DNA of 64,000 bases from a phage. The stretch is taken from sequence record PX068456.1. One strand, written 5' to 3'. The notes under the pieces were generated by a model that ran no database searches, was not told the origin of the DNA, and saw only the letters and a list, made by a program, of their open reading frames with translations. Each line of letters begins with the position of its first letter. Within the stretch, counting starts at the first letter, position 1. A program made the translations under genes and the position numbers. Positions 10,241 through 14,064 of this stretch are shown one piece after another.

Positions 10241-10507
10241 ATGACAAATACTCCTTTACATCTCATGCACTCATTGGGCTGGCAAGGCGGCACGGTGCAC
10301 CAGGTAGCAAGCGCAACGGGCTTAAAGGTTGAAACCGTTCTCAACCTGGGCGATCATAAGGTGGAAGAAATAGAAAACTTTGATCCGTTCGCTGATGGTT
10401 ATCTATGGGCTTGCAGTGGCGGCGGGGAAAGCAAGATCCCGCCAGGGGCGCGGGGCGACATGTATTTTTGGTTAGGTGTCCTATCCTGGCAAGAAAACAA
10501 AAAATAA
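10241..10507 (+). CDS. hypothetical protein (88 aa) in GC-rich island
   Basis: ORF track; RBS AAAGAAAGGGCG; local GC visibly higher than flanks. Confidence 0.4.
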   Translation: MTNTPLHLMHSLGWQGGTVHQVASATGLKVETVLNLGDHKVEEIENFDPFADGYLWACSGGGESKIPPGARGDMYFWLGVLSWQENKK

Positions 10508-10508
10508 T

Positions 10509-10538
10509 CTTGACAAGCCCAGGGATCGGGCTTATACT
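10509..10538 (+). promoter_or_regulatory. sigma70-like promoter (TTGACA-18-TATACT) with no ORF downstream
   Basis: hexamers read directly; downstream ~150 nt GC-rich and lacks an ATG-initiated ORF. Confidence 0.4.
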
Positions 10539-10759
10539 GTTTTACATACAGAAGAGGAAACGCCACCCCCACGGCGTAAAGGCGGGGCTAACATACCAGG
10601 GGGCACTGGTTGGAAGGTTGATCGCCGGTAGCTCGTCCAAAATAAATTTGTAAAGAAATGTAAAGATAAAAATAATCGCTTGCTTTTGTTGTTGGTTATG
10701 CTATTCTTATTGTATGGCGAGGGGACACGGGAGCGCGAGACAAACACCGCCCCTGCGCG

Positions 10760-10885
10760 TTATTCTGTAAATGAGAAAAATTCTCATTTGCTAATGATTC
10801 TCATTCTCTTAGTGAGAATGCTTATCATTTACATAATTAAATGATAATGATTCTCATTTACAAATGAGAATGATTATCATACGCA
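10760..10885. repeat. cluster of Fur-box-like palindromes (AATGAT-T-ATCATT / ATGAGAAT..ATTCTCAT)
   Basis: at least four overlapping copies; related copies at 56-92, 250-275, 1118-1192. Confidence 0.45.
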
Positions 10886-10904
10886 TACCCATAAAAACAC
10901 GAAA

Positions 10905-11104
10905 TTGAACTTTTCATTTTTGATTTTTCTACGGAAAAAGGCAAAAAAACTTTAAATAAACTGGGGAATTTTTAAAAAATTGAAGTTTTCATTTTCAAAA
11001 TCTGGATAGAAATACATACAAAAACTTTAAATAATTTTGACCAAACTTGAACTTTTCATTTTCAAAATTTGTATCCAAAAATCTGTAAAAACTTTAAATA
11101 ATTT
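10905..11104. repeat. three ~60-65 bp direct repeats (TTGAACTTTTCATTTTCAAAAT ... AAAAACTTTAAATAA)
   Basis: units at about 10905-10960, 10980-11036, 11047-11104 in an AT-rich non-coding stretch. Confidence 0.55.
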
Positions 11105-11320
11105 TGTCCTTTTTATAAAAATGATTTTACTGTTCTGTTATAAATAGTAGTTAAGAGATAGTATGCCTTTTAAAAACCAGATATCATAATCCAACAAACA
11201 AATTAAATAATTTATTAACAGAGTACAAAATAATATTTACTCTGAATATATTATTCAGAGGGTGAATTTCCGTACATGAAACCCACACCCCTTTTTATAA
11301 AAATAAAAATTTTCAAAATA

Positions 11321-11872
11321 TCAGGAAATATCAGATTGTGTTTTTAGAAAAACAGCAAGGTCTGTATGCCATTTTCCTAAAAGATTTTGTCCTTTCCAAC
11401 AATCCTTATTTTCCACGTCCCGATCCCACATCCCCATTTTGATACCATAAATAGAATCATAGGGGCTTGCCTCTACGAACTCCTTATCTGCGTAAGCGAT
11501 AAGTTTATTTTTGAGATCTTCATTTTGTGTGTATTTAAGATACAAACCACGCTTGACAATCTTCTCCCGTAAAGAAGCCCAGGTATCTTCATCATAATCT
11601 TTAACTAATCTGCCTAGTCGCTTATAATATGCTTGTTCTTTTTCTCCTGTATATCTTAGATCTCCGGTTAAAATAGAAGATGCAATGTTGTAATCATAAA
11701 ACAAACATGCTTTTCTCCACATCATATATTGTTCCACACAAGTAAATTCAACAGAACTTGTAATAGAATTATTATACTTGGGAGCTAAAGGTTCAATAAA
11801 AGATGATAGATACCAGTTGCTAAATTCATCTTTTGCCGAGAAGAAGAACACATACTTATCAGTAATCCGCAT
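11321..11872 (-). CDS. NADAR (YbiA-like, DUF1768) domain protein
   Basis: motifs FFFS..EFSNW, EQYMMW, EASPYDSIYGIKMG and KGQNLLGK match YbiA/NADAR pattern by eye. Confidence 0.6.
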   Translation of the reverse strand: MRITDKYVFFFSAKDEFSNWYLSSFIEPLAPKYNNSITSSVEFTCVEQYMMWRKACLFYDYNIASSILTGDLRYTGEKEQAYYKRLGRLVKDYDEDTWASLREKIVKRGLYLKYTQNEDLKNKLIAYADKEFVEASPYDSIYGIKMGMWDRDVENKDCWKGQNLLGKWHTDLAVFLKTQSDIS

Positions 11873-12862
11873 TTACACCTCCTTATTGTATACTAACTTG
11901 CCACCATATTGTGTAATAATTTTTTGAAGATTTTCCAAATCAGAAACACTTACTGTTTCTGTATGACCGTCTTTCAACTCTCTTGCTGTTAAAATACCAG
12001 TTTTTAATTTTTTCTTTATAGCTCTTTCAGCAGCCTTACACTGTTTCACTGTGCTAAAATCATATAAACAAATACGTTCCATAAAAAACAGATTACGGCT
12101 ATTTTGAATGTTTAATCGCCTATCACTATCTTTAGCTATACCAAACTTAAGAGCAACTATAATATTATCATCCTTAACAATATTAATATATAACTGCTGC
12201 TGACTATGACCAGCACACATAGGACAACCTCGACCGAGGCTTAATAAATTATTAGCACTCCCTATCTGCTCACCATGCACAAGACAAAGATATTTAAACT
12301 TACCTATAGAAGAGGGTTTGGTAATCCAATCTACCCAGACATACCCTTTCCCTTCTACTTCCTTTTTTACCCTATAGGTGATCTGGTCTTCTGTATACCG
12401 ATAGTTCCCACAACGACACGGAATATACCCTCGTTTAAGGTTATCTCCTTCAGAGTAAAATTTACCATCACAAACACCTGCTTGAACATATTCATCATGA
12501 GAGCAAACAGGACATTCAACCATCCAGATAATATTCCTACATCCTTTACCCCGTGTTCCTGTGTTAGTGAAGATAGTGCCTTCCTTAAATTCCCCTGTAG
12601 AAAAGAAATCTGCAATATGTTGATCGTCGGACATTGTTTGTGACTTCCTTATATTCTTCCTCCTACATTGTGGACAACCGCTACCACATTTAAAACTGTT
12701 AATACTTGTAGTATCCCATTTATAACCACAATGGCACAACAAATCAAGTTTTGTGTGGACCCCTTTCCATTGTCCCGTCCATCCTAAGATTTGGATTTGC
12801 TTACTCTCTGCTATTGGTATACACTCTTCTTTATATTGTTCCCATGATTTTGGTGCTGCCAT
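11873..12862 (-). CDS. Cys-rich protein with three zinc-ribbon-like repeats and C-terminal T5orf172 (GIY-YIG-like) domain; putative nuclease/DNA-binding
   Basis: repeated C-x-C...CPxC modules; C-terminal KFGIAKDSDRRL resembles T5orf172 KIGxT..RR motif. Confidence 0.45.
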   Translation of the reverse strand: MAAPKSWEQYKEECIPIAESKQIQILGWTGQWKGVHTKLDLLCHCGYKWDTTSINSFKCGSGCPQCRRKNIRKSQTMSDDQHIADFFSTGEFKEGTIFTNTGTRGKGCRNIIWMVECPVCSHDEYVQAGVCDGKFYSEGDNLKRGYIPCRCGNYRYTEDQITYRVKKEVEGKGYVWVDWITKPSSIGKFKYLCLVHGEQIGSANNLLSLGRGCPMCAGHSQQQLYINIVKDDNIIVALKFGIAKDSDRRLNIQNSRNLFFMERICLYDFSTVKQCKAAERAIKKKLKTGILTARELKDGHTETVSVSDLENLQKIITQYGGKLVYNKEV

Positions 12863-12900
12863 CTACTACTCCTCTTATTAAATCTGGCATTAATGCAAGA

Positions 12901-12922
12901 AAACCCGCCGAAGCGGGTTTTT
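12901..12922. terminator. intrinsic terminator hairpin AAACCCGCcgaaGCGGGTTTTT
   Basis: GC stem with T-run; between minus genes. Confidence 0.5.
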
Positions 12923-12936
12923 ATTTGCTGGCTTAC

Positions 12937-14064
12937 TTAAAACACACTTGCCAAAGTTGCACCATTGGTGATAGTTGGTTCCAGAACAATACGGAAAGAA
13001 TCTTCTGGATCATCACTAAACACAACGATTTTACCGCCTGTGATAAGGTCTGCTTTCATTTTTGTCGCATTCAACGGAATTCGAGCATCGCCTTCATCAT
13101 CAAAAACCACGTAAGAGCTATTAGCAAGGGCTTCTTTAGAATCTGCATCACTTGGAGATGACAAGTACACGTCTAGTGTGCACGAGCCACCTAAAAAGAT
13201 TGCAGGTGTAAAGTTATGCCAACTAGATACCCAGCTAACTTTCTGAAGTTTCCCATTAATAACAACACTGCTGATATCCCATTTATTACCACCACCTAAA
13301 GAAACGCCCATCATAGAGATGCATTCTTTAAAGGATAAATCAGGGTAGAAATTAAGTTCTTCTACTATACCTTGGATCACATCAAAGGATAACTCTAAAC
13401 TTACATCCCAAAGCCTTTGAAAATTATCAAAGTGTGCTTTGTTATCCAGGTTTTTATCTAAATAGTCAATCATAGTTTCTAGTGAGATTTTATCATAATT
13501 AAAATTATAAAACACACGACTAGGACGATTTAGAAAGAATTCAGAGATAAAGCCACTGTTTTTAGTTAGAATAAACAGTTTATTACCACTGCCAGTACCA
13601 TCTAACAAAGTGAGAAGTGCTTCTTGATCTTGTTTCTTCTCATATACTTTATCAAACTCGTCAAAAATAATCACTGCTTTGTCGGTGATCTTGCTAATAA
13701 GTTCAATGAAATTAGCATCGCTGTAGGCTTGAGTAACCATAATAGTTGGAATACCTTCTTCTACAAGGTCACGACTAATGAGTTTGGCTAACATAGTTTT
13801 ACCACTACCCTTAGTTCCTGTCAGAAGCAAGCCTGTATTTTTACCTTGTGCACTCCGGCGATGGAATGTACGGATAACGTGATTTGCTCGTTTTTCTGTT
13901 TCACCATACAGAACATCCGGTACACCTGTCAGATTACCACGGCTTAAAAAATAATTGCCAAGGGGATCACGACTAACAGTATAGAATCCAGGTGGAAGAT
14001 AGTTAGATTCCACGCCCATGTCTTTATTTACACTTACAATATCACCATAAATCGTGTATTTCAT
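12937..14064 (-). CDS. AAA-family ATPase (paralogue of 28044..29204)
   Basis: Walker A GTKGSGKT, Walker B IIFDEFDK; N-terminal 200 aa align with 28044 ORF. Confidence 0.65.
   Translation of the reverse strand: MKYTIYGDIVSVNKDMGVESNYLPPGFYTVSRDPLGNYFLSRGNLTGVPDVLYGETEKRANHVIRTFHRRSAQGKNTGLLLTGTKGSGKTMLAKLISRDLVEEGIPTIMVTQAYSDANFIELISKITDKAVIIFDEFDKVYEKKQDQEALLTLLDGTGSGNKLFILTKNSGFISEFFLNRPSRVFYNFNYDKISLETMIDYLDKNLDNKAHFDNFQRLWDVSLELSFDVIQGIVEELNFYPDLSFKECISMMGVSLGGGNKWDISSVVINGKLQKVSWVSSWHNFTPAIFLGGSCTLDVYLSSPSDADSKEALANSSYVVFDDEGDARIPLNATKMKADLITGGKIVVFSDDPEDSFRIVLEPTITNGATLASVF

Follow-up and report, generated by a model that had tools for sequence, protein, structure and literature searches.

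The closest described counterpart of the locus analyzed here is AdfN^Bas60, a NADAR protein encoded by the BASEL phages Bas60, Bas61, and Bas62 that neutralizes DarT1 in E. coli (Johannesman, Carlson and LeRoux, Nat Commun 2025;16:1598; PMC11825919). AdfN^Bas60 restored the plaquing of RB69, T5, and Bas25 on DarTG1 hosts and was without effect on DarTG2; expressed from a plasmid, it neutralized DarT1 with no help from other phage factors, and three unrelated phages were rescued (PMC11825919). It groups with bacterial NADARs that are not associated with DarT, and its activity extends beyond its own phage, in contrast to that of AdfN^T4 (PMC11825919). A second family of relevance is that of the ICP1-type CapR-T5orf172 proteins (Barth, Dunham and Seed, NAR Genom Bioinform 2023), described as homing endonucleases in which CapR zinc fingers are repeated; for the T5orf172 domain, nuclease activity has been demonstrated in Odn (PMC10448857).

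In the phage DNA studied here, a window of 64,000 nucleotides (sequence record PX068456.1), genes of both kinds lie side by side. The window is part of the genome of an E. coli phage of the genus Justusliebigvirus (phi92-like, Stephanstirmvirinae); its DNA is 98.8% identical to that of phage SD2, and 55 Justusliebigvirus-type records each cover at least 80% of the region. Both genes are on the minus strand and match exactly the ORF coordinates of the initial annotation. The upstream gene (11873..12862) codes for a homing-endonuclease-like CapR-T5orf172 nuclease of 329 aa, assigned from Pfam matches to CapR (three times) and T5orf172 and from PHROG 681; the downstream, adfN-type gene (11321..11872) codes for a 183-aa NADAR of the YbiA fold, assigned from Pfam NADAR, orthology to AdfN^Bas60, and AF2/Foldseek. 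The NADAR neighborhood consists of an AAA ATPase gene, the nuclease gene, and small unknown ORFs.

The TAA stop of the nuclease gene (11873-11875) directly abuts the ATG of the NADAR gene (11870-11872), and a Shine-Dalgarno sequence for the latter, AAGGAGGTG, can be read within the last codons of the former (11876..11884, minus strand); the same arrangement is found in the phi92 annotation. The nuclease gene is separated from the AAA ATPase gene upstream of it by an intrinsic terminator-like hairpin, AAAACCCGC-TTCG-GCGGGTTTT (12896..12925, minus strand; -17.8 kcal/mol and z -3.8 by RNA folding), which is kept in phi92, muut, and Ro121c4, with a different hairpin at that place in ESCO13. A pattern scan did not list this hairpin, probably because its A/T tracts pair. 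A sigma-70 scan of the gap between terminator and nuclease gene, and of the nuclease gene for a promoter serving NADAR, gave 18 matches against 14.9 expected, none of them convincing, and Rfam and tRNA scans over the whole window returned nothing. With stop and start abutting and a terminator directly ahead of the pair, joint expression of the two genes is probable, presumably by co-transcription; this agrees with a joint role but is no evidence for one.

The initial annotation had called the 183-aa product a NADAR protein from matching motifs, and profile searches bear this out: the ORF scores 125.8 bits (E 2.6e-36) against Pfam NADAR (PF08719; cutoff 35.1) and passes NCBIfam TIGR02464 as well (110 bits; cutoff 73.7). 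Its sequence also matches PDB entry 8BAU, a NADAR, at E 3e-13. With the AF2 model (pLDDT 95.8) as a Foldseek query, 8BAU was again the best match (TM 0.76), followed by YbiA (2B3W, TM 0.69-0.74), with none further below E 1. In the phmmer alignment to 8BAU, residues E47, K54, K84, R88, and E134 align with E43, K50, K75, R79, and E125 of PnNADAR, whose catalytic and ADP-ribose-binding roles have been described (PMC11543638). Four of them (E47, K54, K84, and E134) are invariant among 19 NADAR homologs, and R88 is kept in at least 90%, with Lys in one. The protein is identical to those of Bas61 and Bas62 at 180 and 179 of 183 positions, respectively (98%), and none of the three or four substitutions affects a catalytic position.

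Given this 98% identity to the Bas61/Bas62 proteins, at the same locus and in the same phage genus as AdfN^Bas60, the same activity is expected of the 183-aa NADAR, namely that of a guanine-specific DNA ADP-ribosylglycohydrolase that neutralizes DarT1. In such a scheme, host DarT1 would ADP-ribosylate guanines in the phage DNA, and the NADAR, as an orphan-antitoxin counter-defense enzyme, would hydrolyze the ADP-ribose-guanine bond so that replication can go on; it would act on the DarTG1 (guanine) branch and not on the DarTG2 (thymine) branch. No ART domain or DarT gene stands next to NADAR among the Pfam-scanned neighbors, as expected for an orphan antitoxin. The same orphan-antitoxin-on-phage logic applies to AdfN^T4 (gp30.3), which, like the NADARs of DarG1, has the NADAR/YbiA fold in common with the present protein and is associated with the same guanine-ADP-ribose reaction. 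The three differ in the catalytic residue of the last strand, which is Glu here (E134), His in the gp30.3 type, and Asp in DarG1; in vitro, NADARs of the Glu type are capable of removing cytidine-ADP-ribose as well (PMC12945103). The link to reversal of DarT-type guanine ADP-ribosylation, which the initial annotation had drawn, is supported by the DarT1 neutralization that others have shown for the 98%-identical AdfN^Bas60 (PMC11825919). Thus, the anti-DarT reading is right but already known, having been published in 2025 for a near-identical protein.

The 329-aa product of the upstream gene matches PHROG 681, ‘endonuclease’ (E 4.7e-68), and, in three stretches, the Pfam CapR homology domain (PF21817; E 1.7e-25). 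These stretches, together with visible Cys pairs, confirm the three zinc ribbons of the initial annotation. The repeats lie at about aa 21-68, 92-152, and 173-218 (12209..12802, minus strand), contain the ligand clusters C43xC45...C63xxC66, C117xxC120...C149xC151, and C193xxH196...C213xxC216, and presumably form the DNA-recognition part. The C-terminal part (aa 221-329; 11876..12202, minus strand) is the T5orf172 domain, with a Pfam score (PF10544, residues 231-317) of 21.5 bits, marginally over the cutoff of 20. Sequence comparison of the nuclease with PDB chains gave chance antibody matches only, and its GIY-YIG kinship came to light only through a fold search. The AF2 model of the protein has a pLDDT of 88; the C-terminal domain has a GIY-YIG fold, and the earlier description of this end as T5orf172/GIY-YIG-like stands. 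The segment KFGIAKDSDRRL, on which that description had drawn, corresponds to residues 239-250. R249 is located eight residues past G241 of the K-F-G-I motif, a spacing we take to be that of G19 and R27 in I-TevI; R249 and E302, to which a catalytic role may be assigned by spacing, are invariant in 17 homologs. Nuclease-domain residues remain invariant down to 31% identity. Judged by these scores, the domain calls of both genes are profile matches far beyond chance and not motif resemblances.

The 329-aa gene is a member of the CapR-T5orf172 family of homing endonucleases known from ICP1 and other phages. As in the ICP1-type enzymes, repeated CapR zinc fingers precede a T5orf172 domain, and in a tblastn search with the nuclease, the CapR part aligned with ICP1 genes at about 32% identity. 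By analogy with the family, the zinc-ribbon array would read a DNA site that the GIY-YIG-fold domain would cut, and we infer nuclease activity and homing for the protein on this basis. Changes in repeat number and domain swapping, described below, also match the description of the ICP1-type family. Unlike its ICP1-type relatives, the present gene occurs in a Stephanstirmvirinae lineage, as a single copy fixed at one locus rather than expanded to many copies, and it adjoins accessory early genes, not essential genes; it is not discussed in the paper by Barth, Dunham and Seed. PLE CapR shares the zinc-finger DNA-binding domain but lacks the nuclease domain, whereas the 329-aa protein keeps both ancestral parts; ICP1 Odn has the T5orf172 nuclease domain in common with it. 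Compared with SLX1 and the GIY-YIG homing endonucleases of T4 (I-TevI and the Seg proteins), the 329-aa protein has the reverse domain order, its nuclease part being at the C-terminus; it also has other DNA-binding modules, and K-F-G-I stands in place of the first Tyr-Ile-Gly motif.

The nuclease evolves much faster than the NADAR. Orthologs at the same locus carry 3, 4, or 5 CapR repeats, corresponding to 325-330, 390-412, and 465-486 aa. For instance, the nucleases of L005 and L006 are one 67-aa repeat apart, with no amino-acid change in the aligned part. In other cases, the gene has been exchanged as a whole: the flanks of the locus are 98.8% and 97.2% identical between Ro121c4 and ESCO13, while the nuclease proteins are only about 35% identical. 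The replaced stretch spans the entire nuclease ORF and its upstream spacer, with breakpoints a few bases from the ATPase stop and about 16 nt ahead of the nuclease stop, and this pattern of cassette replacement is seen in about half of the listed Phapecoctavirus records. Phage phiWec179 has a second nuclease paralog at another locus, on the strand opposite to its neighbors.

Between the window and EmilieFrey, nonsynonymous and synonymous changes number 24:1 in the CapR part, 9:8 in the T5orf172 part, 3:15 in the NADAR gene, and 0:25 in the ATPase gene. In the T5orf172 part, pN/pS values of 0.1-0.4 indicate purifying selection. For the CapR part, pN/pS exceeds 1 in one close pair only, a single pair picked after the fact (binomial p 0.03), and is 0.4-0.7 in the remaining pairs; on these values, proven positive selection was set aside, and the CapR part appears to be under relaxed or diversifying constraint. 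The nuclease would persist as a selfish or semi-domesticated cassette at the locus, with a DNA-binding array that changes fast as repeats are gained or lost, alleles replaced, and amino acids substituted.

The nuclease occurs in practically all members sequenced. NADAR is present in 56 records at no less than 95% identity and the nuclease, likewise, in 56 at no less than 60%. In all Justusliebigvirus and Phapecoctavirus records seen, the nuclease gene occupies one locus, usually as a single copy per genome, and one match was found within the 64-kb window. A recently mobile homing gene normally leaves nuclease-free empty sites. No clean case of such a site was found among the records of the subfamily, where EP57 alone is without the gene; we did not accept EP57 as a natural empty site, as it has several other deletions, including two-thirds of NADAR, and may be a poor assembly.

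The gene order ATPase, nuclease, ..., NADAR is conserved in two genera, but in Phapecoctavirus, the sister genus, two unrelated small genes separate the nuclease from NADAR. Outside Stephanstirmvirinae, no association of NADAR with such a nuclease emerged. CapR and T5orf172 are absent from the 25 commonest of 46 Pfam families in a scan of 111 immediate neighbors of NADAR genes from 56 other viral lineages, where the recurrent neighbors are NAPRTase, NUDIX, Macro, and nucleoside deoxyribosyltransferase; one T5orf172 neighbor may lie among the less common families. Similarly, a survey of 80 NADAR loci from IMG/VR (58 clusters) with our own CapR and T5orf172 HMMs gave, beyond Stephanstirmvirinae, only three weak cases within 6 kb. 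Along the same lines, the independently acquired AdfN^Bas32 of phage IrisVonRoten (L088, 43642-44091; Pfam NADAR E 8e-22) has no nuclease beside it, its neighbors being an unknown 94-aa protein and a DUF7022 protein. In Vequintavirinae, NADAR genes are directly followed by an HNH-type nuclease gene, and a loose, recurrent association of NADAR and nuclease genes is conceivable within the sample used. Neither the paper on AdfN, nor that on ICP1 AdfB, nor the HIDEN-SEQ preprint mentions a link between homing endonucleases and anti-DarT genes.

We interpret the locus, with a probability of roughly 80%, as a jointly transcribed pair of genes with independent functions, a counter-defense NADAR downstream of a resident selfish homing-type nuclease. 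The NADAR gene would simply come after the nuclease gene and have a strong ribosome-binding site of its own; it may profit from the nuclease or be dragged along by it, and would have no need of it. Among the alternatives in the initial annotation, a selfish nuclease with a passenger or neighbor is the best fit to the comparative genomics, whereas a coupled counter-defense or repair module is not upheld, the nuclease being a swappable, independently evolving cassette whose adjacency to NADAR is limited to one subfamily. A true two-gene module, in which the nuclease recognizes or excises ADP-ribosylated or damaged DNA for NADAR or regulates its expression, would account for the abutting stop and start, the Shine-Dalgarno sequence within the upstream gene, the terminator ahead of the pair, the order kept across two genera, and the HNH nuclease adjoining NADAR in Vequintavirinae. 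Such a module is nonetheless very improbable: AdfN^Bas60 from a plasmid is enough against DarT1 (PMC11825919), two genes intervene in Phapecoctavirus, nuclease alleles about 35% identical sit beside NADAR regions about 98% identical, no such partner stands among the commonest neighbor families of NADAR in the 56 other viral lineages or beside AdfN^Bas32, and nuclease families and positions vary by lineage. That the NADAR is instead metabolic, a YbiA-type N-glycosidase acting on riboflavin-pathway intermediates or small ribosyl compounds and not on DNA, is extremely improbable, even though TIGR02464, which it passes, is named ‘riboflavin biosynthesis intermediates N-glycosidase’, E134 is the Glu that distinguishes the YbiA/NADAR class, DarG1 having Asp and gp30.3 His at this position, and GenBank labels include ‘YbiA-like N-glycosidase’ and ‘GTP cyclohydrolase II’. 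For the 98%-identical ortholog, activity against DarT1 has been demonstrated directly (PMC11825919), and no riboflavin genes lie near the locus; moreover, E. coli YbiA also strips guanine-ADP-ribose in vitro, so the family label leaves DNA possible as a substrate (PMC11125620).

The independence of the NADAR as an anti-DarT1 protein would be unaffected if the nuclease were domesticated, either as a fixed, Odn-like weapon against satellites or competing phages or as a CapR-like repressor, with zinc ribbons that track a changing target. Fixation of the nuclease across the subfamily would fit a domesticated function as well, and so would the single locus and usually single copy in all Justusliebigvirus and Phapecoctavirus records seen, the conserved nuclease domain under purifying selection next to a CapR part of relaxed or diversifying constraint, and the family precedents of CapR and Odn. 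Efficient homing can also give fixation, though, and the cassette replacement with sharp borders and the second copy in phiWec179 are the behavior of a selfish element; we regard domestication as credible but unlikely. It is rather doubtful that the nuclease is a fast-retargeting driver that spreads the adfN locus in mixed infections by co-conversion, or else a domesticated weapon with diversifying zinc ribbons, a reading that draws on the 24:1 ratio, the alleles of 3, 4, and 5 repeats, and the whole-cassette swaps.

For NADAR biology, the locus adds nothing new, as the function has been in print since 2025 for a near-identical protein of a phage in this genus. It does allow correction of many GenBank records, in which the NADAR appears as ‘GTP cyclohydrolase II’ or ‘hypothetical protein’ and the nuclease as ‘hypothetical protein’. 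For the nuclease family, it offers a clear and well-sampled case, from outside ICP1, of a CapR-T5orf172 nuclease that evolves as repeats are gained or lost and as whole cassettes are replaced between near-identical flanks. An effect of the nuclease on adfN inheritance that goes beyond linkage is unlikely; if the nuclease did bias that inheritance, the locus would provide a concrete example of an anti-defense gene spread by a selfish element. Under the driver reading, the adjacency of NADAR and nuclease genes in two subfamilies, with T5orf172 here and HNH in Vequintavirinae, would reflect selection linking selfish nucleases to anti-defense cargo.

Two open reading frames on the minus strand, one of 329 aa (11873-12862) and one of 183 aa (11321-11872), were recovered by direct reading exactly as the initial annotation had placed and described them. 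In the sequence, the TAA of the former directly abuts the ATG of the latter, and a strong Shine–Dalgarno sequence for the downstream gene, AAGGAGGTG, lies within the final codons of the upstream one. A 375-aa AAA ATPase gene (12937-14064) stands upstream of the pair, separated from it by a terminator-like hairpin, AAAACCCGC-TTCG-GCGGGTTTT (folding energy -17.8 kcal/mol, z -3.8), after which the 329-aa ORF has a good ribosome-binding site. On the 3' side of the 183-aa ORF, the coding strand switches after an 810-nt non-coding stretch; plus-strand ORFs in the region are short and unsupported. Identity across the region is 98.8% with Escherichia phage SD2 and 96-98% with ~55 other Justusliebigvirus records, among them phi92, EmilieFrey (Bas61), and JohannJBalmer (Bas62), and identical sequences of both proteins are already in public databases. 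GenBank names the downstream product variously as hypothetical, ‘YbiA-like N-glycosidase’, or ‘GTP cyclohydrolase II’, and the upstream product as hypothetical or ‘endonuclease’. The ATPase goes under the names ‘FtsH-like protease’, ‘Zn metalloprotease’, and ‘regulatory inactivator’. Campylobacter, Acinetobacter, Pseudomonas, Serratia, and Klebsiella are given as hosts for near-identical relatives of this coliphage; both the host labels and product names of the matched records look unreliable.

The non-coding DNA 3' of the NADAR gene has features of its own. Positions 10500-10977 retain 78-90% DNA identity to two Phapecoctavirus loci (L003 and L008), whereas the flanking protein genes are only 68-71% identical between the two genera, which suggests a functional non-coding element; neither an Rfam nor a tRNA scan gave a match there. 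A 19-bp palindrome that looks like the E. coli Fur box, AATGAGAAT-C-ATTCTCATT, was matched at six sites when up to 3 mismatches were allowed (0.07 expected), all within non-coding stretches: 53-71, 1173-1191, 10770-10788, 10811-10829, 10840-10858, and 10863-10881. The last four cluster just 3' of the NADAR gene as nested inverted repeats, and the palindromes may serve a phage regulator as operators or bind host Fur. The Fur-box motif GATAATGATAATCATTATC has 5 matches at four sites (up to 3 mismatches, 0.05 expected). Three direct repeats of ~70-79 nt, 65-71% identical and spaced by 75 and 67 nt, occupy 10902-11122, each containing TTGAACTTTTCATTTTC and AAAAACTTTAAATAA; the muut record carries repeat_region features at this place. 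The repeats may mark a replication origin or belong to some iteron-like element.

The 183-aa protein was called a YbiA-like NADAR from motifs, and the profile search bears this out: it matches Pfam NADAR (PF08719) with an E-value of 2.6e-36 and NCBIfam TIGR02464, labelled riboflavin N-glycosidase, above cutoff, while a sequence search matched the Phytophthora NADAR crystal structure 8BAU (E 3e-13). Its AlphaFold model (pLDDT 95.8) superposed on 8BAU (TM 0.76) and E. coli YbiA, and on nothing else. The PnNADAR active-site residues E43, K50, K75, R79, and E125 (PMC11543638) correspond to E47, K54, K84, R88, and E134, four of which are invariant in 19 diverse homologues, with R88 kept in at least 90% and replaced by Lys in one. 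The last-strand residue is Glu, the YbiA/NADAR type, in contrast to Asp in DarG1 and His in T4 gp30.3. Phages Bas60, Bas61, and Bas62 encode a NADAR named AdfN^Bas60, which, expressed alone, neutralised the DarT1 toxin in E. coli and restored plaquing of RB69, T5, and Bas25 on DarTG1 hosts, with no effect on DarTG2 (Johannesman, Carlson, LeRoux, Nat Commun 2025;16:1598). The window protein is identical to the Bas61 and Bas62 proteins at 180/183 and 179/183 positions, respectively, with none of the substitutions at catalytic positions. Because of this near-identity to a tested protein, the proposed anti-DarT function is right, and it is also published knowledge for the same orthologue group. 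By analogy with its orthologue, the window NADAR would be a phage anti-DarTG1 enzyme working alone. The riboflavin N-glycosidase label reflects the matched family model and does not conflict with this role, since guanine-ADP-ribose, too, is a substrate of YbiA-type enzymes in vitro (PMC11125620); Glu-type NADARs remove cytidine-ADP-ribose too (PMC12945103).

The upstream gene belongs, by sequence, to a described nuclease family. In line with the three zinc ribbons and T5orf172-like C-terminus first read by eye, three stretches of the protein match the Pfam CapR homology domain (E 1.7e-25) and its score for T5orf172 is barely above threshold (21.5 bits vs 20); it also matches PHROG 681 ‘endonuclease’ (E 4.7e-68). 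Among 17 homologues, the most distant at 31% identity, Y225, K239-x-G241-I242, R249, E279, and E302 do not vary, and the spacing of R249 after the ‘YIG-like’ motif is presumably that of the catalytic Arg in I-TevI. Using tblastn, the protein recovered ICP1 homing endonuclease genes at ~32% identity and hundreds of further phage genes, with several in one genome being frequent. In ICP1, T5-like, and other phages, T5orf172 genes that carry one or more CapR-type zinc fingers were classed as homing endonuclease genes by Barth, Dunham, and Seed (2023), who noted repeat-mediated recombination and domain swapping in them and cited nuclease activity for the T5orf172 domain of Odn; they did not discuss this gene of phi92-like phages.

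The nuclease behaves quite unlike its neighbouring genes. Its orthologues measure 325-330, 390-412, or 465-486 aa, corresponding to three, four, and five repeats, and the three-repeat form of the window equals residues 71-396 of the four-repeat form in muut. Recent gain or loss of a repeat in frame is seen cleanly in two metagenomic alleles from IMG/VR contigs (L005, 4828-5997, and L006, 4180-5148): they differ by one 67-aa repeat (390 vs 323 aa), yet where their CapR parts align there are 9 synonymous differences and no nonsynonymous ones. Larger exchanges also occur. In phi92, a diverged CapR part has been swapped in, while the nuclease domain and both flanks are still 96-98% identical. Ro121c4 and ESCO13 share the two flanks at 98.8% and 97.2% identity, but a segment that begins 5 bases past the ATPase stop and ends 16 bases short of the nuclease stop has been exchanged for an allele ~35% identical in protein, a pattern seen in about half of the Phapecoctavirus records among the matches listed. 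A second nuclease paralogue is present in phiWec179, far from the first and encoded on the other strand from the genes around it. Compared with EmilieFrey, the CapR part has 24 nonsynonymous and 1 synonymous differences, the T5orf172 part 9 and 8, the NADAR gene 3 and 15, and the ATPase gene 0 and 25. When all pairs are considered, the CapR part has pN/pS values of 0.4-0.7 and the nuclease domain values of 0.1-0.4; a value above 1 in one pair is suggestive only, because it was noticed post hoc with p about 0.03.

A coupled counter-defence or repair module, as the initial annotation had entertained, is not supported by these data. Although the Justusliebigvirus order is ATPase, terminator, nuclease, and NADAR, two unrelated small genes in Phapecoctavirus (121 and 62 aa, no Pfam match) separate the nuclease from NADAR, and nuclease cassettes are swapped. 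To look beyond the subfamily, IMG/VR was scanned with a degenerate pattern, which gave 80 NADAR loci in 58 clusters; in these, HMMs built from the CapR and T5orf172 parts detected the nuclease in the four Stephanstirmvirinae loci only, plus three weak cases (one T5orf172-like ORF beside the NADAR of a jumbo phage, and two ORFs with zinc ribbons no more than 2 kb away). A handful of nuclease neighbours in ~58 lineages would be expected, given how densely homing endonuclease genes populate large virulent phages. CapR and T5orf172 were absent from the 25 commonest Pfam families among 111 immediate NADAR neighbours in the other 56 clusters, where NAPRTase (4), nucleoside 2-deoxyribosyltransferase-like (3), NUDIX (3), Macro (2), and HNH (2) recurred. 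Dihydrofolate reductase (DHFR), dCMP deaminase, and thymidylate synthase genes also adjoin NADAR in the IMG/VR loci L009-L084, and in other viral lineages NADAR repeatedly sits beside NAD/ADP-ribose or nucleotide-metabolism genes. AdfN^Bas32, acquired independently by a T5-like phage, has no nuclease neighbour. In the Vequintavirinae 4MG (L091, 4001-4946) and KpS8 (L092, 4001-4946), a NADAR homologue 38-41% identical lies in a replication/repair gene block, followed directly by a 145-aa HNH endonuclease gene and an exonuclease gene; unlike the T5orf172 protein of the window, that nuclease is of another family and in another position. A true cooperative module is very improbable.

The most economical reading is an independent NADAR beside a resident homing-type nuclease, whose DNA-recognition array would be undergoing reshuffling; the two would be tied only by position and probably by transcription. 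‘A selfish nuclease with a passenger’ came closest among the alternatives first proposed. The nuclease was at the locus in all NADAR-bearing records (56 vs 56 in Justusliebigvirus). In EP57 (OR544956.1, L085), a Phapecoctavirus record of 130.7 kb, a deletion that opens 10 nt ahead of the ATPase stop and closes 19 nt short of the nuclease stop removes the nuclease gene almost precisely. The initial two-thirds of its NADAR gene are missing as well, along with several other small segments, so that this is either a phage with multiple deletions or a faulty assembly. Because no clean nuclease-free allele was found among the records compared and the nuclease is fixed across two genera, the protein may have been domesticated, for instance into an Odn-like weapon or into a regulator, though we regard this as unlikely. 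What is new here are the repeat-number alleles, the cassette swaps, and the contrasting selective regimes beside a counter-defence gene; these locus-specific observations add new details rather than a new kind of system.
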